Source: Escherichia coli
GTDB lineage: Bacteria > Pseudomonadota > Gammaproteobacteria > Enterobacterales > Enterobacteriaceae
Direction: 5' to 3' (one strand)
DNA length: 64,000 nt
Assembly (NCBI RefSeq): GCF_044324785.1
Contig: NZ_CP172127.1
Numbering within the stretch: the stretch's first letter is position 1; each line of letters begins with the position of its first letter. This document shows, piece by piece, positions 23,339 to 53,685 of the stretch. The notes under the pieces are model-generated. The model ran no database searches and was not told the origin of the DNA. It worked only from the letters and a program-made list of their open reading frames with translations. The translations under genes and the position numbers were made by a program.

Positions 23339-26015
23339 CGAACCCTTACGTCCCGACCCCGATCGTCTGCTGGAACAAACTGCCGCGCCGCATCGGGGGA
23401 AGCTGAAAGTTTTCTTCGGTGCCTGTGCGGGCGTCGGGAAGACCTGGGCGATGCTGGCAGAGGCCCAGCGACTGCGGGCGCAAGGGCTGGATATTGTGGT
23501 TGGCGTGGTTGAAACCCACGGGCGGAAAGATACCGCCGCAATGCTGGAAGGGCTGGCTGTTCTGCCGCCCAAACGCCAGGCGTACCGTGGGCGGCATATC
23601 AGCGAGTTTGATCTCGATGCCGCCCTCGCCCGCCGTCCGGCGCTGATCTTAATGGACGAACTGGCGCACAGTAATGCGCCAGGTTCTCGTCATCCTAAAC
23701 GCTGGCAGGACATCGAAGAGCTGCTGGAAGCAGGCATTGATGTTTTCACAACCGTCAACGTTCAGCATCTGGAAAGTCTGAATGATGTGGTCAGCGGCGT
23801 CACCGGAATTCAGGTACGGGAAACCGTGCCCGATCCTTTTTTCGATGCCGCCGACGACGTGGTGCTGGTGGACTTGCCCCCGGACGATCTGCGTCAAAGG
23901 CTGAAAGAAGGTAAAGTCTATATTGCCGGGCAGGCGGAACGCGCCATTGAACATTTTTTTCGCAAAGGCAATCTGATCGCCCTGCGCGAACTGGCACTGC
24001 GCCGTACTGCCGATCGCGTAGATGAGCAAATGCGCGCCTGGCGGGGGCATCCTGGCGAAGAGAAAGTCTGGCACACGCGCGACGCGATCCTTTTATGCAT
24101 CGGGCATAACACCGGCAGCGAAAAACTGGTCCGCGCGGCGGCGCGGCTGGCGTCACGGCTGGGTAGCGTCTGGCACGCGGTGTATGTTGAAACCCCTGCC
24201 CTGCACCGCTTACCGGAGAAAAAACGTCGGGCAATTCTCAGCGCCTTACGTCTGGCGCAGGAGCTGGGCGCGGAGACGGCAACACTTTCTGATCCAGCGG
24301 AAGAGAAAGCGGTAGTGCGTTATGCGCGTGAACATAATCTCGGCAAGATTATTCTCGGTCGCCCGGCCTCGCGCCGCTGGTGGCGTCGGGAAACGTTTGC
24401 TGACCGACTGGCGCGCATCGCCCCCGATCTCGATCAGGTGCTGGTCGCGCTTGATGAACCACCCGCCCGCACGATTAACAACGCGCCGGATAGCCGCTCT
24501 TTTAAAGACAAGTGGCGGGTACAGATTCAGGGATGCGTGGTTGCCGCCGCGTTATGCGCCGTTATCACCTTAATTGCCATGCAGTGGCTGATGGCGTTTG
24601 ATGCCGCCAACCTGGTGATGCTGTATCTGCTGGGCGTGGTGGTGGTGGCGCTATTTTATGGACGCTGGCCTTCGGTGGTTGCCACCGTCATTAATGTGGT
24701 GAGTTTCGATCTCTTTTTTATCGCCCCACGCGGCACGCTCGCCGTCTCTGATGTGCAATATCTGCTGACCTTCGCGGTGATGTTAACCGTCGGGCTGGTG
24801 ATCGGGAACCTTACTGCTGGCGTGCGTTATCAGGCGCGGGTAGCCCGTTACCGCGAGCAACGCACACGGCACTTATATGAAATGTCGAAAGCTCTGGCTG
24901 TGGGCCGCAGTCCGCAGGACATCGCCGCCACCAGCGAACAATTTATTGCCTCCACGTTTCATGCCCGCAGTCAGGTGTTGTTGCCCGATGACAACGGTAA
25001 ATTGCAGCCGTTAACACATCCGCAAGGAATGACGCCGTGGGACGATGCCATCGCGCAGTGGAGTTTTGATAAAGGCCTGCCTGCGGGCGCGGGCACCGAC
25101 ACGTTACCCGGTGTACCGTACCAGATTTTGCCGCTAAAAAGCGGCGAGAAAACCTACGGGCTGGTGGTGGTGGAACCGGGGAATCTGCGCCAGTTGATGA
25201 TCCCGGAACAGCAACGCCTGCTGGAGACGTTTACGCTGTTAGTCGCCAATGCGCTTGAGCGGCTGACACTGACCGCCAGCGAAGAACAGGCGCGGATGGC
25301 AAGCGAACGAGAACAGATCCGCAACGCCCTGCTGGCGGCGCTTTCGCATGATTTACGCACGCCGCTTACGGTGCTGTTCGGACAGGCAGAAATCTTAACG
25401 CTCGATCTGGCAAGCGAAGGATCGCCGCACGCCCGCCAGGCCAGCGAGATTCGTCAGCATGTGCTGAACACGACCCGACTGGTGAATAATCTACTGGATA
25501 TGGCGCGAATTCAGTCCGGCGGCTTTAATTTGAAGAAAGAGTGGTTAACGCTGGAAGAAGTGGTCGGCAGCGCGCTGCAAATGCTGGAACCGGGTTTATC
25601 GTCGCCCATCAATCTTTCTCTGCCAGAACCGCTGACCTTAATCCACGTTGACGGGCCACTCTTTGAACGGGTGCTGATTAATCTGCTGGAGAACGCGGTG
25701 AAATACGCGGGTGCACAGGCCGAAATTGGTATCGATGCCCACGTTGAGGGCGAAAATCTACAACTGGATGTCTGGGATAACGGCCCCGGTCTTCCGCCAG
25801 GCCAGGAGCAGACGATATTTGATAAGTTTGCTCGCGGGAATAAAGAGTCGGCGGTGCCGGGTGTCGGGCTTGGGCTGGCAATTTGTCGGGCGATTGTGGA
25901 TGTACACGGTGGCACCATTACCGCGTTCAACCGACCGGAAGGTGGTGCCTGTTTTCGTGTTACACTTCCCCAGCAAACTGCCCCTGAACTTGAAGAATTT
26001 CATGAGGATATGTGA
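23331..26015 (+). CDS. kdpD: Sensor histidine kinase KdpD
   Basis: Start [10 protein letters not shown] at 23331 overlapping kdpC stop; 894 aa; membrane-spanning region plus HisKA (H-box LSHDLRTPL) and HATPase domains. Confidence 0.9.
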
Positions 26016-31867: not shown

Positions 31868-31897
31868 AAAGCCAACCTGCGGGTTGGCTTTTTTATA
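31868..31897 (+). terminator. Intrinsic terminator after fur
   Basis: AAAAGCCAACCtgcgGGTTGGCTTTTTTAT. Confidence 0.75.
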
Positions 31898-31934
31898 CAC
31901 GGGAAATAAGAAAAGCGAGAGTTACAGCTCTCAC

Positions 31935-32261
31935 TTATTTGTTATTACTGCGAATTTCCTGCCAGACCTTATCACAATCGGCTTTCACCGCCTGATCATT
32001 ACCGGTTTGCGTTGCGCGCAGACACTGCTGATAATCCAGTACGCGTACACTTTCCTGATCGGCAAACTGCTGATGTTGTTTCTCTTTCTTCAGCACGTTT
32101 AACACGCTCTGGCAGGCTTCAATTTTTTCTGGCGAACCTTGTGCGGTGTTGATACAGGCGCTGTATGCCTCTTTCAGACGACTGTCTTCCTGTGGCGCGG
32201 TTGATTGCGCACAAGCTACCAGCCCCGATGCCATTATGGCGATGAGAATCAGTTTTTTCAT
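31935..32261 (-). CDS. chiQ: Lipoprotein ChiQ
   Basis: 108-aa ORF with lipobox LVAC in MKKLILIAIMASGLVACAQ; downstream of chiP. Confidence 0.8.
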   Translation of the reverse strand: MKKLILIAIMASGLVACAQSTAPQEDSRLKEAYSACINTAQGSPEKIEACQSVLNVLKKEKQHQQFADQESVRVLDYQQCLRATQTGNDQAVKADCDKVWQEIRSNNK

Positions 32262-32310: not shown

Positions 32311-33717
32311 TCAGAAGATGGTGAATGGTGCGATTACCATAAATTTCACGTCACGCTCATCCTGGAAGATGTTGCCGTAACCGCCGCCCCAGCTTGGGAT
32401 GTCGGAGTGGTTGTCGTATTCGGTGAAGTGCAGTTTGAACATCGTGCCTTTGGCGCGACCGTCCTGAATGGTGTACACCGCATCCAGGCTGTAGGCAGAC
32501 TCTTCAATAGTCCGGTTTTTGTCGTAGTACGCATCCGGATTGCTCTGCCAGGTAGCGGGTTTAGCATCCCATGCGTAAACGTAGGAAGCGCCGATGGCGA
32601 AGCCTGGAAGATTCCAGTTTTTCAGGTCATACATCGCACCGAAGAAGACCGCTTTTTCGCCGTTGGCGTTGAAGTCAGAACGGTTATCCCACCAGATATC
32701 CAGGCGGCCGTTCGAGGAAGCGTAGGTTGGGGTCATACGTTGCAGGAAGTATCCCTGCTGACCGTCGGCTTTAACCCAGGTGCCTTCCAGACGCAAATCC
32801 ACTACGTCAGCCGCCCGGTAACCAAAGGTCAACGCTTGCAGCCAGGCGGTGCCGTCGTAAAGATCGTTGACACTGCGATCGTCAACTTTATCGCGCGTAC
32901 CGTAGAACTGATAGCTGGTGGTTAGCGGGCTACCGGCGATATCAAATTTGTAGCTGGCTTTGGCAAAATATTGATCGATATACCCTTCAGCCTGACCAAA
33001 TGCCGCTTCCAGTACGAAGTTATTTTTGAAGTCGTACTTCGCCCCGAGGGAGTGTAAATAGTCAACCTTGGTGGTTTTATCGTTCTGATAAAACTCATCC
33101 ATTTCCAGATGCCACGGTGCTTTGTATTCGTTGGTCCACATGTAGGAGAAACTCAACGCACCCGCATCGCCGTAATCAAAATTCGCCCCGGCTTCCGCAC
33201 CCTGATAAGTACCCGGCATAAAGCTCCAGTGCGGCGCTAACAGCGTCTGACCGGTTGGCTGAATATAACCTGCCCTCGCCCACACCGGACCGTATTTAAA
33301 TTTGGCCGCTGCTTTATACAGGCTTATACCGCTTTTATCGCCGGACCAGTCTTCGTCATAGGCTTTATTGCTTTTTGAAAACGCGATTTCGTTCGGGTGA
33401 GAGCTGTCACCGTTTTCCGCCATTTCAATCGCCGTAAACGCAGCAATATCAAGGCCGAACATATCAGCAGCATAACCGGACTGAAAATCGAGGTTGGCAT
33501 TCCAGGTGGAGTGAGAAAGGTTGGTTTTGTATTTGTCGCCGTCGGTAACATCTTTACGGTCGCGTTCACGCTGCCAGTAATAGATACCGCCGGTTAAGGT
33601 TGAATCGTCGATGAATCCTTCGGCGCGAGCCTCCGGCATTGCCATAAAGCCCGACATTGCTGTAACACCGGCGATAGCCAGCGCCAGCGTACTACGTTTG
33701 CCACTAAACGTACGCAT
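32311..33717 (-). CDS. chiP: Chitooligosaccharide outer-membrane porin (chitoporin)
   Basis: 468-aa ORF with signal peptide and C-terminal F (outer-membrane beta-barrel signature); recognised as ChiP/YbfM. Confidence 0.9.
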
Positions 33718-34060
33718 GGGTTAATCCTCTTTGACGTATAAATTGCTGCACCAAAGGTGAACAGCGAAAAAAATAAAAATTAAAAAAGTAGCGTTGAGAA
33801 AAGTCTCGCTGACTACAGGAACAGACTATTTTTCGCGACGCGAATTATCAATCTCTTTCTGTAACCAGAATGTAAGAACATGAGCAACCGCACATATTTT
33901 GATGATTTTTGTTACAAGGCTTAAGTTGTAGTTGAAAGGTGTGTTGAAGAAAAAATGCGTGAATTTCCAGCAAGATGAAAGCGGTTACATTTTATTTAAT
34001 TATGATTTGTAATTTTAAATTTGCTTTATGAATAAATTACGAAGCAGAATTAATTCGCGA
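33718..34060 (-). promoter_or_regulatory. chiP promoter and long AT-rich 5' leader
   Basis: About 440 bp AT-rich non-coding region between glnS terminator and chiP start; location of the ChiX-targeted chiP leader from literature; boundaries not determined. Confidence 0.35.
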
Positions 34061-34070
34061 AGAAAAGCAG

Positions 34071-34100
34071 AAAAAAACGCCGCGGAGCGCGGCGTTTGGG
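34071..34100 (-). terminator. Intrinsic terminator after glnS
   Basis: On minus strand CCAAACGCCGCGctccGCGGCGTTTTTTT. Confidence 0.6.
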
Positions 34101-34118
34101 ATTGTTTGCATATTTCTT

Positions 34119-34152
34119 GCCGGATTCGGCGTAAACGCTCTATCCGACAACG
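34119..34152. repeat. REP-like element
   Basis: GCCGGATTCGGCGTAAACGCTCTATCCGACA resembles REP consensus. Confidence 0.5.
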
Positions 34153-34157
34153 TAAAA

Positions 34158-35822
34158 TTACTCGCCTACTTTCGCCCAGGTATCACGCAGCCCAACGGTG
34201 CGGTTAAATACCGGTTTTTCCGCCGTAGAATGGCGGCTGTCGAGGCAGAAATAACCTTCACGCTCAAACTGGAATGCTTTACCCGCTACCGCGTCTTTCA
34301 GAGACGGTTCAGCAAAGCCCTGTTTGATCACCAGCGATTCCGGGTTAATCACCGACAGGAAATCATCCGCAGCACCTGGGTTCGGCACGCTGAACAGACG
34401 ATCGTACAGGCGGATTTCAACCGGCAGCGCATGTGCCGAGCTCACCCAGTGAATAACGCCTTTCACTTTACGACCATCTGCCGGATCTTTGCTTAAGGTG
34501 TCGGCGTCATAAGTACAGAAGATGGTGGTGATATTGCCTTCGGCATCTTTCTCCACGCGTTCTGCCTTAATGACGTAAGCATTACGCAGACGCACTTCTT
34601 TACCGAGCACCAGACGTTTGTACTGCTTGTTAGCTTCTTCGCGGAAATCGGCGCGATCGATCCAAATCTCACCGCTAAACGGCACCTGACGGCTACCCAT
34701 TTCCGGTTTGTTCGGATGGTTCGGCATGGTGACCATTTCGCCTTCGCCCTGATAGTTTTCGATAACCAGTTTCACCGGATCGATAACCGCCATTGCGCGC
34801 GGGGCATTTTCGTTGAGATCTTCACGGATGCAGGATTCCAGCGACGCCATCTCAATGGTGTTGTCCTGCTTGGTCACGCCGATGCGTTTGCAGAACTCAC
34901 GAATAGAAGCCGCAGTGTAACCTCGACGACGCAGACCGGAAATGGTCGGCATACGCGGGTCATCCCAGCCTTCAACGTGCTTGTCGGTCACCAGCAGGTT
35001 CAGCTTACGCTTGGACATCACGGTGTATTCCAGATTCAGGCGCGAGAATTCGTACTGGCGCGGGTGAACAGGAATGGTGATGTTGTCCAGCACCCAGTCG
35101 TACAGGCGACGGTTGTCCTGGAACTCAAGCGTACACAGAGAGTGCGTAATACCTTCCAGCGCATCGCTGATGCAATGGGTGAAGTCGTACATCGGGTAGA
35201 TGCACCACTTGTTGCCAGTCTGGTGGTGTTCAGCAAATTTAATGCGGTACAGCACCGGATCGCGCATTACGATAAATGGCGACGCCATGTCGATTTTCGC
35301 ACGAAGGCAGGCTTTACCTTCTTCAAAACCACCGGCACGCATTTTTTCGAACAGCGCCAGGTTCTCTTCAACGCTGCGGTCGCGGTACGGGCTGTTTTTA
35401 CCCGGTTGCGTCAGGGTACCGCGGTATTCGCGGATCTGTTCCGGCGTCAGTTCATCAACGTACGCCAGGCCTTTATTGATCAGTTCGATCGCATAGGCGT
35501 GGAGCTGATCAAAATAATCAGAGGAGTAACGGACGTTACCAGACCAGTGAAAACCTAACCACTCTACGTCGTTTTTGATCGAATCGACATACTCGATATC
35601 TTCTTTTACCGGGTTAGTGTCGTCGAAACGCAGGTTGCACTGGCCTTTATAGTCCTGGGCGATCCCGAAGTTCAGGCAGATAGATTTCGCATGGCCAATA
35701 TGCAGATAGCCATTCGGCTCCGGCGGGAAACGGGTGTGTACTGTGGTGTGCTTACCACTGGCCAGATCTTCATCGATGATCTGACGGATAAAGTTAGTCG
35801 GGCGGGCTTCTGCCTCACTCAT
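34158..35822 (-). CDS. glnS: Glutaminyl-tRNA synthetase
   Basis: 554-aa [19 protein letters not shown] with class I HIGH motif (HIGH at [16 protein letters not shown]). Confidence 0.95.
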
Positions 35823-37971: not shown

Positions 37972-38128
37972 CTTATTCCCCCTACGAGAACCCTATTTGG
38001 CTCGTTTAAAGCCGTATTTTTATTTTGCTGCAAATTGTACTGCCGATGTTCTGTAATCAGATTGTTAGATCATCTGCTACAGAGTGTGTGAAAATTTAAT
38101 TCGTATCGCAAATTAAACGCGTGTCTTT

Positions 38129-38144: not shown

Positions 38145-38303
38145 AAATATCGTTATCATCACTCCCTTTTACTGGCTAAACCAGAAAACTTATTTTATCA
38201 TTCAAAAAATCAGGTCGGATTGACGCCTGTCTGCGCAAATCCAGGTTACGCTTAAAGATGCCTAATCCGCCAACGGCTTACATTTTACTTATTGAGGTGA
38301 ATA

Positions 38304-44641: not shown

Positions 44642-44718
44642 GGCTACGTAGCTCAGTTGGTTAGAGCACATCACTCATAATGATGGGGTCACAGGTTCGA
44701 ATCCCGTCGTAGCCACCA
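44642..44718 (+). tRNA. metT: tRNA-Met (CAU), elongator type
   Basis: 77-nt cloverleaf-compatible sequence, anticodon loop CTCATAA, 3' CCA encoded. Confidence 0.9.
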
Positions 44719-44726
44719 TCTTTTTT

Positions 44727-44811
44727 GCGGGAGTGGCGAAATTGGTAGACGCACCAGATTTAGGTTCTGGCGCCGCAAGGTGTGCGAGTTCAAGTCTCGC
44801 CTCCCGCACCA
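44727..44811 (+). tRNA. leuW: tRNA-Leu (UAG)
   Basis: 85-nt sequence with long variable arm, anticodon loop TTTAGGT, CCA end. Confidence 0.9.
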
Positions 44812-44834
44812 TTCACCAGAAAGCGTTGTACGGA

Positions 44835-44909
44835 TGGGGTATCGCCAAGCGGTAAGGCACCGGTTTTTGATACCGGCATTCCCTGGTTCGAATCCAGGTA
44901 CCCCAGCCA
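44835..44909 (+). tRNA. glnU: tRNA-Gln (UUG)
   Basis: 75-nt sequence, anticodon stem CCGGT/ACCGG with loop TTTTGAT, CCA end. Confidence 0.9.
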
Positions 44910-44924
44910 TCGAAGAAACAATCT

Positions 44925-45001
44925 GGCTACGTAGCTCAGTTGGTTAGAGCACATCACTCATAATGATGGGGTCACAGGTTCGAATCCCGTCGTAGCCACC
45001 A
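44925..45001 (+). tRNA. metU: tRNA-Met (CAU), elongator type, second copy
   Basis: Identical to 44642..44718. Confidence 0.9.
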
Positions 45002-45049
45002 AATTCTGAATGTGTCGAATAAGTTCGGCAAATTCACAAACCAATTTGT

Positions 45050-45124
45050 TGGGGTATCGCCAAGCGGTAAGGCACCGGATTCTGATTCCGGCATTCCGAG
45101 GTTCGAATCCTCGTACCCCAGCCA
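45050..45124 (+). tRNA. glnV: tRNA-Gln (CUG)
   Basis: 75-nt sequence, anticodon loop TTCTGAT, CCA end. Confidence 0.9.
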
Positions 45125-52607: not shown

Positions 52608-53516
52608 ATGCAATTACGTAAACCTGCCACAGCAATCCTGGCCCTGGCGCTTTCCGCAGGACTGGCACAGGCAGATGACGCCGCCCCGGCAGCGGGCAGT
52701 ACTCTGGACAAAATCGCCAAAAACGGTGTGATTGTCGTCGGTCACCGTGAATCTTCAGTGCCTTTCTCTTATTACGACAATCAGCAAAAAGTGGTGGGTT
52801 ACTCGCAGGATTACTCCAACGCCATTGTTGAAGCAGTGAAAAAGAAACTCAACAAACCGGACTTGCAGGTAAAACTGATTCCGATTACCTCACAAAACCG
52901 TATTCCGCTGCTGCAAAACGGCACTTTTGATTTTGAATGTGGCTCTACCACCAACAACGTCGAACGCCAAAAACAGGCGGCTTTCTCTGACACTATTTTC
53001 GTGGTCGGTACGCGCCTGCTGACCAAAAAGGGCGGCGATATCAAAGATTTTGCCGACCTGAAAGGCAAAGCCGTAGTCGTCACTTCCGGCACTACCTCTG
53101 AAGTTTTGCTCAACAAATTGAATGAAGAGCAAAAAATGAATATGCGCATCATCAGCGCCAAAGATCACGGTGACTCTTTCCGCACCCTGGAAAGCGGTCG
53201 TGCTGTTGCCTTTATGATGGATGACGCTCTGCTGGCCGGTGAACGTGCGAAAGCGAAGAAACCAGACAACTGGGATATCGTCGGCAAGCCGCAGTCTCAG
53301 GAAGCCTACGGTTGCATGTTGCGTAAAGATGATCCGCAGTTCAAAAAGCTGATGGATGACACCATCGCGCAGGTGCAGACCTCCGGTGAAGCGGAAAAAT
53401 GGTTTGATAAGTGGTTTAAAAATCCCATTCCGCCGAAAAACCTGAACATGAATTTCGAGCTGTCAGACGAAATGAAAGCACTGTTCAAAGAACCGAATGA
53501 TAAGGCACTGAACTAA
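52608..53516 (+). CDS. gltI: Glutamate/aspartate ABC transporter periplasmic binding protein
   Basis: ATG at 52608 after AAAGGA RBS; signal peptide MQLRKPATAILALALSAGLAQA; 302 aa. Confidence 0.9.
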   Translation: MQLRKPATAILALALSAGLAQADDAAPAAGSTLDKIAKNGVIVVGHRESSVPFSYYDNQQKVVGYSQDYSNAIVEAVKKKLNKPDLQVKLIPITSQNRIPLLQNGTFDFECGSTTNNVERQKQAAFSDTIFVVGTRLLTKKGGDIKDFADLKGKAVVVTSGTTSEVLLNKLNEEQKMNMRIISAKDHGDSFRTLESGRAVAFMMDDALLAGERAKAKKPDNWDIVGKPQSQEAYGCMLRKDDPQFKKLMDDTIAQVQTSGEAEKWFDKWFKNPIPPKNLNMNFELSDEMKALFKEPNDKALN

Positions 53517-53672
53517 TTACAAGAACCAGGGGCGGAAATTCCAGCCCTCTCGATTGTTACGTAGCACGGACAGACTATACGCCTGATGGTCGTTCCCCAT
53601 CGGGCCTGAAAACCGCAATACGCTGGGTAACAATCTTCGAGGGTAGCAGTTAACGCTGCTACCCTCTTTTTT
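53512..53672 (+). ncRNA. sroC: Candidate SroC sRNA (processed from gltI-gltJ spacer)
   Basis: 169-bp gltI-gltJ intergenic region ending in strong terminator; SroC is described at this position in E. coli/Salmonella; 5' end not determinable from sequence. Confidence 0.4.
53637..53670 (+). terminator. Intrinsic terminator in gltI-gltJ spacer
   Basis: GAGGGTAGCAGttaacGCTGCTACCCTCTTTTTT. Confidence 0.8.
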
Positions 53673-53685
53673 CTGGAGTAGATTT

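Follow-up and report, generated by a model that had tools for sequence, protein, structure and literature searches.

The glnS–chiP intergenic region of an Escherichia coli genome carries the published control elements of the chiPQ operon

The chiP/ChiX/chb circuit is a textbook example of silencing by a small RNA (sRNA) that is lifted by an mRNA decoy, combined with sRNA-induced Rho polarity, and a further copy of it has little discovery value. In E. coli K-12 and Salmonella, the pairing of ChiX with chiP has been proven by compensatory mutations (PMC7815308, PMC6582626). Pairing blocks translation, triggers decay of the mRNA and exposes an intragenic Rho site, which also silences chiQ (PMC6582626). 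Repression is lifted when the chb mRNA, induced by chitobiose, titrates ChiX (PMC7815308, PMC6582626). At the level of transcription, a review that cites Plumbridge et al. 2014 names NagC as a repressor of both chiP and chb, and Table 1 of FITBAR lists a NagC operator called ‘ybfM proximal’, GATAATTCGCGTCGCGAAAAATA (PMC3098098). Qian et al. 2016 found a GalR ChIP-chip peak at K-12 position 708069, upstream of chiP, with the inferred site ATGAAAGCGGTTACA; this site was validated by ChIP-qPCR and was counted as a known operator, with a citation of Plumbridge et al. 2014 (PMC5110547). In addition, ybfM is among the new targets of cAMP-CRP found by genomic SELEX (PMC3105977).

The leader of chiP has also been described as an RNA in its own right. 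Adams et al. (eLife 2021, and its correction) gave the name ChiZ to a 5′ fragment of chiP of about 90 nt that ends at the start codon, with a Term-seq 3′ end at 708334 (PMC7815308). ChiZ depends on Hfq and Rho (Adams et al. 2021, PMC7815308), and its overexpression lowered ChiX and raised chiP, which makes it a sponge of ChiX in a reciprocal loop (PMC7815308). In Salmonella, Hfq CLIP located a peak, with crosslinks, in a UA-rich part of the 5′ UTR of chiP (PMC5207318), a result that supports the model proposed by Schu et al. 2015 for targets of class II sRNAs, in the form in which that model is cited there.

The galP promoter of E. coli, which is repressed by GalR/GalS and NagC and activated by CRP, resembles chiP in its trio of regulators, in its multiple distant operators and in its role in sugar uptake. 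However, GalR is the main specific repressor of galP and galactose the inducer, whereas at chiP the high-affinity site that overlaps the promoter is that of NagC and any effect of GalR is putative. At nagE–nagBACD, repression involves a loop with CRP between two NagC operators. The nag locus has the same 23-bp type of NagC operator as chiP, with similar scores, and likewise two operators; those of nag are two strong ones separated by 94 bp, whereas the candidate distal site of chiP is 222 bp away from the proximal one and weak in Escherichia.

We analysed the region upstream of chiP in a stretch of E. coli DNA of 64,000 nucleotides (the window). The interval 33718–34157 is exactly the 440-bp gap on the minus strand between the stop codon of glnS and the ATG of chiP. 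Its identity as the glnS–chiP intergenic region follows from the flanking open reading frames and their NCBIfam matches, the product of glnS (554 aa) scoring 1067 bits against TIGR00440 (cut-off 426) and that of the chitoporin gene chiP (468 aa) scoring 852.6 bits against the ChiP family NF047822 (cut-off 750). The same scan placed nagE further upstream of glnS in the window, and the gene order nagE–glnS–chiP–chiQ–fur agrees with that of annotated E. coli genomes. The list of open reading frames held no protein-coding one of note inside 33718–34157, just mechanical frames of 41 and 59 aa, and no Rfam family reached its gathering score between 33500 and 34400 (top match naRNA4, 25.4 bits against 59.5). 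The GC content of the interval is 36.6%, compared with 51.6% for the window, which places it within the lowest 2% of all 440-bp segments, and it falls to 30% in the core at 33850–34066.

An earlier note on this DNA had described about 440 bp of AT-rich, non-coding sequence between the glnS terminator and chiP. The low-GC gap of 440 bp is there, but both the terminator (stem 34097–34075, T-tail to 34066) and a REP-like element (34148–34119) lie inside it, so that the AT-rich stretch from terminator to chiP comes to about 350 bp. Similarly, what the note called a long leader/promoter region does contain a leader and a promoter, but the leader takes up just 99 of the 440 nt (33816–33718), and the remainder consists of the promoter, upstream operators, the glnS terminator and the REP-like element.

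The features found are collected in Table 1. Every element that could be tested agrees with the published control region of chiP (ybfM) in E. coli K-12 and Salmonella, and is in this sense already known. By analogy with these two systems, the interval very probably comprises the whole chiPQ control region and functions in the way reported for them. The location, uniqueness and conservation of all sites were established here; binding and regulation at these sites are taken from the literature on K-12 and Salmonella and would carry over to the present strain. The worth of the region is that of a positive control, in that it was recognised from sequence alone and its published elements could then be placed to the base.

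The proposed arrangement and its working are as follows. The REP-like element and the intrinsic terminator of glnS would be followed by some 250 bp of AT-rich DNA with a NagC-like distal site, a GalR site and a CRP-type site at a class I position. NagC bound to the operator in the promoter spacer would keep RNA polymerase off until GlcNAc-6-P derived from chitosugars releases it. Transcription would then start about 99 nt before the ATG, giving a leader made up of two hairpins and an intervening U-rich tract that may bind Hfq. Constitutive ChiX would pair with 12 nt over the Shine–Dalgarno sequence and block translation; the untranslated chiP mRNA would be degraded, and Rho termination inside chiP would silence chiQ too. 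Chitosugars would induce the chb operon, whose mRNA would titrate ChiX, and the short leader transcript ChiZ would do likewise.

Table 1. Features of the glnS–chiP region, in the direction of transcription; positions are those of the window, and leader features are listed under the transcript that contains them.
Feature	Position	Strand	Evidence and remarks
glnS coding sequence	34158–35822	−	Upstream neighbour, co-directional with chiP; ORF list and TIGR00440
Single degenerate REP-like element	34119–34148	−	Just past the glnS stop codon; K-12 alignment; sub-threshold naRNA4 match, E = 0.033
glnS intrinsic terminator	34066–34097	−	Terminator scan; conserved in K-12 and CUVET21
Candidate distal NagC operator TCTGCTTTTCTTCGCGAATTAAT	34049–34071	−	PWM 7.3 bits, rank 31–34 of ~64,000; conserved block
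Promoter-like site for a putative long leader	−35, 34018–34013; −10 TAAAAT, 33994–33989	−	Promoter scan
GalR operator ATGTAACCGCTTTCAT	33975–33990	−	Centre ~−166.5 from the TSS; PWM and published K-12 ChIP site
Heptamer TGTAACA (TGTWACA)	33910–33916	−	~−97 from the TSS; conserved spacing to the NagC operator
CRP-type site TGTGC-N6-TCATG (putative)	33879–33894	−	Centre −70.5 or −71.5 (class I position); conservation and SELEX listing
chiP −35 hexamer TTGATA	33846–33851	−	5/6 consensus; invariant in 21 genera; 17-bp spacer; position fits the annotated TSS
Proximal NagC operator GATAATTCGCGTCGCGAAAAATA	33827–33849	−	Exact match to ‘ybfM proximal’, FITBAR Table 1 (PMC3098098)
chiP −10 hexamer TAGTCT	33823–33828	−	3/6 consensus (T1, A2, T6 conserved); TAnnCT across genera; position relative to the TSS
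chiP 5′ UTR = sRNA ChiZ	33718–33816	−	3′ end of ChiZ at 33717, the A of the ATG
Leader stem-loop 1	33788–33816	−	Extreme 5′ end; MFE fold, consensus fold, covariation (50 sequences)
U/A-rich single-stranded tract UUUUUUAAUUUUUAUUUUUUUC	33766–33787	−	Unpaired in the fold; U-rich in all genera; likely Hfq rim-binding site
Leader stem-loop 2 (GCUG..CACC/GGUG..CAGC)	33745–33765	−	MFE fold, consensus fold, covariation
ChiX pairing site CGUCAAAGAGGA	33725–33736	−	Positions −19 to −8; contains the Shine–Dalgarno GAGGA (33729–33725)
chiP coding sequence	32311–33717	−	ORF list and NF047822; chiQ next at 31935–32261

Compared with the glnS–chiP region of K-12 MG1655 (707758–708333), the genes, their order, the NagC and GalR operators, the CRP-type site, the promoter hexamers, the context of the transcription start site (TSS), the ChiX site and ChiZ are the same. 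The differences are two extra REP units in K-12 and several substitutions in the distal AT-rich part (33920–34040). Over the last ~215 bp before the ATG, the window is identical to K-12 save for one extra T in a T-run. The surrounding 5.5 kb is 97–98% identical to K-12 and to CUVET21-1780, and 92–94% identical to E. whittamii, Escherichia sp. MOD1, E. albertii and a record labelled E. coli SCPM. The figure of 100% identity between ChiP and its E. whittamii counterpart holds for the best segment only. The chiP leader of Salmonella (Figueroa-Bossi 2009; Bossi 2012, reviewed in PMC6582626) has the same ChiX site, CGTCAAAGAGGA, and the same two-hairpin form, and its NagC operator is the same bar one central base; unlike here, the Salmonella representative carries a degenerate GalR operator, and the upstream AT-rich DNA is unalignable.

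The interval had a match in 5424 of 5426 complete E. coli genomes, with 90–95% identity in most of them, and its proximal 201 bp were at least 99% identical in 5010 of the 5424. The conserved, functional part of the interval is its proximal half. Beyond the species, chiP loci were compared by taking one genome per species, which gave 80 loci from about 20 enterobacterial genera. The 200 bp next to the promoter are almost frozen across E. coli and the ~20 genera; the distal half turns over: the number of REP copies changes, some lineages have lost the GalR site, and ERIC elements and prophages have inserted.

At chiP, a σ70 promoter was found in the order TTGATA, 17 bp, TAGTCT and then 6 nt to G33816. 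The TSS is either this G or T33815, as given by the chiZ annotation of K-12 and by the cloning primers of Adams et al., which start with TAGTCAGCG. The −10 hexamer is too weak for the promoter scan, which left this promoter under its threshold and unlisted. The proximal NagC operator was scored with a symmetric position weight matrix (PWM) built from nine other listed NagC sites, the chiP proximal site having been left out of training. It ranked first of the ~64,000 window positions, with 22.8 bits, and the nagE (38095–38117, 22.7 bits) and nagB (38189–38211, 18.4 bits) operators in the window were recovered as positive controls. The site is a 23-bp palindrome with A/T flanks and the TT..CG/CG..AA pattern, it is essentially invariant in 79 loci from ~20 genera, and it runs from the last 4 nt of the −35 hexamer through the entire spacer into the −10 hexamer, of which it takes up the first 2 nt. 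From this geometry we infer that bound NagC must exclude RNA polymerase. The earlier note was right to name NagC as a regulator of chiP, since the published operator is present without a change at 33849–33827 and the search it suggested for the NagC consensus returned this site on top. Its view that the operator and the pairing site could not be fixed from sequence alone was too pessimistic, as both were placed to the base.

The promoter scan bears on a different reading, in which most of the 440 bp would be a genuine long 5′ leader transcribed from a second, upstream promoter, with the GalR operator at its start point repressing it. The sole promoter-like site that the scan reported in the interval is at 34018–33989. 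The core of the GalR operator (33989–33976) would then sit at about −6 to +8 of the upstream promoter, which is a typical position for a repressor, and a TAnnnT-like hexamer precedes the GalR operator in several genera. However, the number of promoter-like matches is no more than expected by chance in DNA this rich in AT (1 found, 1.3 expected), the upstream −35 region is not conserved between genera, and the sole transcript start for this region in the K-12 annotation and in Adams et al. 2021 is the annotated 5′ end of chiZ, 98 nt before the ATG. We consider a long leader unlikely on this evidence, and prefer a short leader made from the promoter that the NagC operator overlaps.

Upstream of this promoter, an alignment of 21 genera together with motif scans revealed discrete conserved blocks within otherwise unalignable AT-rich DNA. 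One of these, with the form TGWAANCGNTNNCA and an invariant central CG, was first taken for an operator of the LacI/GalR family and was then confirmed from the literature: the sequence at 33990–33975 is the reverse complement of the GalR site inferred by ChIP in K-12. It is a 16-bp dyad, GTGNAANC.GNTTNCAC, with CG at its centre. When a GalR PWM was trained on the other 18 sites of Qian et al. 2016, and hence without chiP, this site came first among 127,972 positions with 18.6 bits, inside the range of the training sites. In 47 of the 80 sequences the motif lies 142–147 bp from the centre of the NagC operator; the representatives of Salmonella and E. albertii have a degenerate form of it. The site suggests that GalR may have a role at chiP, a regulatory effect that we put forward as a proposal.

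Nearer to the promoter, the alignment showed ATATGTGC and TCAT to be invariant and the 6 nt between them variable. The CRP-type site that they form has a centre at −70.5 or −71.5, compared with −61.5, −71.5 and −82.5 for class I sites. Because it has three mismatches to the consensus TGTGA-N6-TCACA, the match is just suggestive and is insignificant alone; activation of chiP by CRP from this putative site is likewise suggestive. The earlier note had mentioned neither the GalR operator nor the CRP-type site, nor that the leader is the annotated sRNA ChiZ.

A further conserved block, TTCGCGnnGCGAATTAAT in the 21-genus alignment, corresponds to 34071–34049 here and resembles a second NagC operator. 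It is identical to the listed distal NagC site of chbB at 16 of 18 bases. Its right half, CGCGAATTAAT, is conserved across genera. In Escherichia the left half is degenerate, the tail of the terminator overlapping and replacing it. The homologous position scores 12–22.8 bits in most other genera, against 7.3 in Escherichia. The spacing between distal and proximal sites, centre to centre, is 222 bp here and 200–236 bp between genera, so that helical phasing is not conserved. NagC may plausibly form a loop by way of this weak candidate site. The first candidate for a distal operator had been 34037–34015 (14.9 bits, rank 4), which was dropped, since its conservation does not reach beyond Escherichia and three of its positions are different in the K-12 allele.

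The last of the upstream blocks is the heptamer, 27 bp further upstream than the CRP-type site. It is exactly 75 bp from the centre of the NagC operator, with at most one mismatch to TTGTWACA, in most of the 80 sequences, and 16 sequences have two mismatches. It is a possibility, though a rather doubtful one, that the control region holds at least one undescribed element, either this heptamer as the binding site of a further regulator, or the leader hairpins and U-tract as a dedicated module for Hfq loading or ChiZ stability.

The fixed distances of these blocks matter for another reading of the AT-rich stretch, as a spacer without function or a mere binding region for nucleoid proteins of the H-NS type, with the sites there by chance. 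The composition would suit it, with the 30% GC of 33850–34066, as would the poor conservation of much of 33920–34050 between genera and the identity of merely 90–95% over the full interval in most E. coli genomes. Nevertheless, the GalR operator, TGTWACA, the CRP-type site and the distal GCGAATTAAT are kept at fixed distances across ~20 genera, and GalR occupies exactly the same place in vivo in K-12 (PMC5110547). A mere spacer or nucleoid-protein region is therefore very unlikely, and we favour a control region with sites embedded in otherwise poorly conserved DNA.

At the distal end of the interval, K-12 has three REP units after glnS, and alignment with the window shows a 138-bp indel that contains REP sequence. 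The two extra units in K-12 account for its intergenic region being 576 bp rather than the 440 bp found here. The glnS terminator has a 10-bp stem with 7 G–C pairs, a 3-nt loop and a T7 tail. This end of the interval gave weak Rfam matches over 34065–34150 to naRNA4 (E = 0.033), sroD and isrK, that is, to REP-derived and other sRNA families, and these might be read to mean that the interval chiefly encodes a small RNA derived from the glnS 3′ UTR or from REP sequence instead of elements that control chiP. But none of these matches comes near its gathering score (25 bits against 59.5), and they can be put down to the REP-like element plus the terminator hairpin; 34065–34150 is also the most variable part within E. 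coli, where REP copy number differs, and such an RNA would leave 33718–34066 unaccounted for. We regard it as extremely improbable in comparison with the assignment of the interval to the control of chiP.

The leader itself matches ChiZ. In K-12, the RefSeq ncRNA chiZ (b4808) is the 98 nt directly before the chiP ATG, from which the window differs by its one extra T, and the primers and Term-seq end of Adams et al. map to 33815/33816 and 33717. The sequence thus corresponds to a transcript that begins at the chiP TSS, ends near the start codon and includes the ChiX site; its expression in this strain is assumed by homology to K-12. ChiZ belongs with IspZ to the sRNA sponges derived from 5′ UTRs (Adams et al. 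2021). It reaches to the start codon, carries the ChiX site and could titrate ChiX; its end comes from Rho-dependent termination, that of IspZ from an intrinsic terminator.

To describe the structure of the leader, a covariance model was seeded on 16 leaders of Escherichia, Citrobacter, Salmonella, Lelliottia and Huaxiibacter, and 50 leaders were aligned to it. In this alignment, 91.7% of the cells of the two hairpins were paired, and 15 of the 16 pairs had double changes. For stem-loop 2, 6 of 7 pairs had changes on both sides and 91–97% of cells were paired. None of 500 shuffles reached as high a value, and controls with the partner slid out of place were 29–76% paired. This covariation is good but not independent support for the hairpins, as the alignment was fitted to the model and so favours the structure. 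RNAalifold predicted no pairs on a plain MAFFT alignment of 67 leaders, because the hairpins are misaligned there. In 65 of the 67 leaders the 5′ hairpin begins within the first 7 nt. Between the hairpins, the U/A-rich tract at 33787–33766 is likely to be a rim-binding site for Hfq, of the kind proposed for the targets of ChiX and other class II sRNAs, by analogy with the Salmonella leader. The ChiX site is mostly single-stranded in the MFE fold of the leader.

Pairing with ChiX was analysed with the ChiX sequence of the K-12 annotation (507204–507287). Nucleotides 45–56 of ChiX (UCCUCUUUGACG) are perfectly complementary to CGUCAAAGAGGA, with 12 of 12 Watson–Crick pairs, and with up to one mismatch the 12-mer has this one match in the window, where 0.19 would be expected by chance. 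A search corrected for accessibility, of the IntaRNA kind that the earlier note had advised, was made over the leader and 60 nt of coding sequence. It found the site, with a hybridisation energy of −18.6 kcal/mol and a total of −15.2 kcal/mol after opening costs, and the next independent site was at −2.6 kcal/mol. The statement that ChiX acts on the chiP leader thus holds for this DNA, with a unique and perfect complement of 12 nt over the Shine–Dalgarno sequence (33736–33725). Hfq-dependent repression by ChiX is reported for K-12 and Salmonella, and as the sequence of the site is identical here, the same would be expected in this strain. Raw duplex energies of ChiX with all 30-nt windows did not single out the chiP site, as chance duplexes rich in G+C were better (for example at 7680 and 25660, minus strand), and an unrestricted duplex fold of ChiX on the whole interval gave long-range structure that was judged meaningless and was set aside.

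The gene for ChiX (also called SroB, MicM or RybC) is absent from the 64-kb window, as expected from its distance of ~200 kb in K-12; of 5426 complete E. coli genomes, 5422 carry it. The core of the pairing site, GTCAAAGAGGA, is near-invariant across the 80 loci from ~20 genera. The exceptions are Kosakonia, which has GTCCAGAAGGA or GTCTAGAAGGA, and one metagenome-assembled genome (MAG) of Leclercia. If the chiX of Kosakonia has its UCCUCUUUGAC altered to fit GTCCAGAAGGA, the pair would be a case of compensatory evolution.

The GalR operator upstream of chiP was degenerate or absent in Salmonella diarizonae (L014), in E. albertii (L008) and in loci of the Enterobacter cloacae complex. Loss or degradation of this operator while the NagC, CRP-type and ChiX sites of the same loci are all intact makes GalR input at chiP seem lineage-specific, judging from the sequences compared. 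A second upstream element is the heptamer TGTWACA. Most of the 80 sequences keep it at a distance of exactly 75 bp to the midpoint of the NagC operator, and its copy in the window was matched by neither the GalR nor the NagC matrix. The ChiX site itself reads GTCCAGAAGGA or GTCTAGAAGGA in Kosakonia and related genomes and is elsewhere almost invariant as GTCAAAGAGGA.

In several Citrobacter genomes and one Raoultella-labelled metagenome-assembled genome, an insertion of about 125 nt, bordered by a TATAC repeat, separates stem-loop 2 of the chiP leader from the ChiX site; it extends the leader to about 230 nt, and the ChiX site still adjoins the ATG. The insertion looks like an ERIC/IRU element. 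In E. coli STEC388 (L085), the match to the chiP promoter stops midway through the NagC operator, and the end of a Mu-like prophage, carrying com, mom and tail fibre genes, directly adjoins chiP, so that the upstream half of the promoter and all upstream operators are displaced.

The glnS–chiP interval is also polymorphic in length among E. coli, at 440 bp in the window versus 576 bp in K-12, because REP copy number differs: one degenerate REP-like unit follows glnS in the window and three do so in K-12. Identity over the whole interval was only 90–95% in most E. coli genomes; over the proximal 200 bp it was at least 99%.

Positions of variable and associated elements in the window and in the fetched chiP loci (L numbers)
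Feature	Position	Strand	Remarks
Leader insertion	L022 2358-2478		also in L015, L023, L024, L026, L027
Disrupted chiP promoter	L085 1-2500		E. coli STEC388, NZ_CP041425.1
REP-bearing segment	window 34108-34157; L002 3259-3420
nagE and nagB NagC operators	window 38095-38117 and 38189-38211		divergent nagE-nagBACD control region
Variant ChiX sites	L048, L054, L059, L060, L069		~20 nt before chiP ATG; Kosakonia and related
Heptamer TGTWACA	window 33910-33916	(-)	~-97 from TSS

The nagE and nagB operators served as positive controls for the NagC matrix within the window, scoring 22.7 and 18.4 bits respectively. A further match of about 14 bits in the chiQ–fur gap (31888–31910) overlaps a terminator-like, A/T-flanked hairpin and is probably a composition artefact. 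Two coding-region stretches, 7651–7680 (-) and 25631–25660 (-), exceeded the true chiP site in raw duplex energy with the single-stranded region of ChiX (−26.4 and −24.4 kcal/mol respectively); their pairing is G+C-rich and interrupted, and these duplexes most likely arise by chance. At the gathering level, Rfam matches over the whole window were confined to the sroC sRNA, which scored 174.8 bits at 53512–53674 (+), and to five clustered tRNA genes at 44642–45121 (+).
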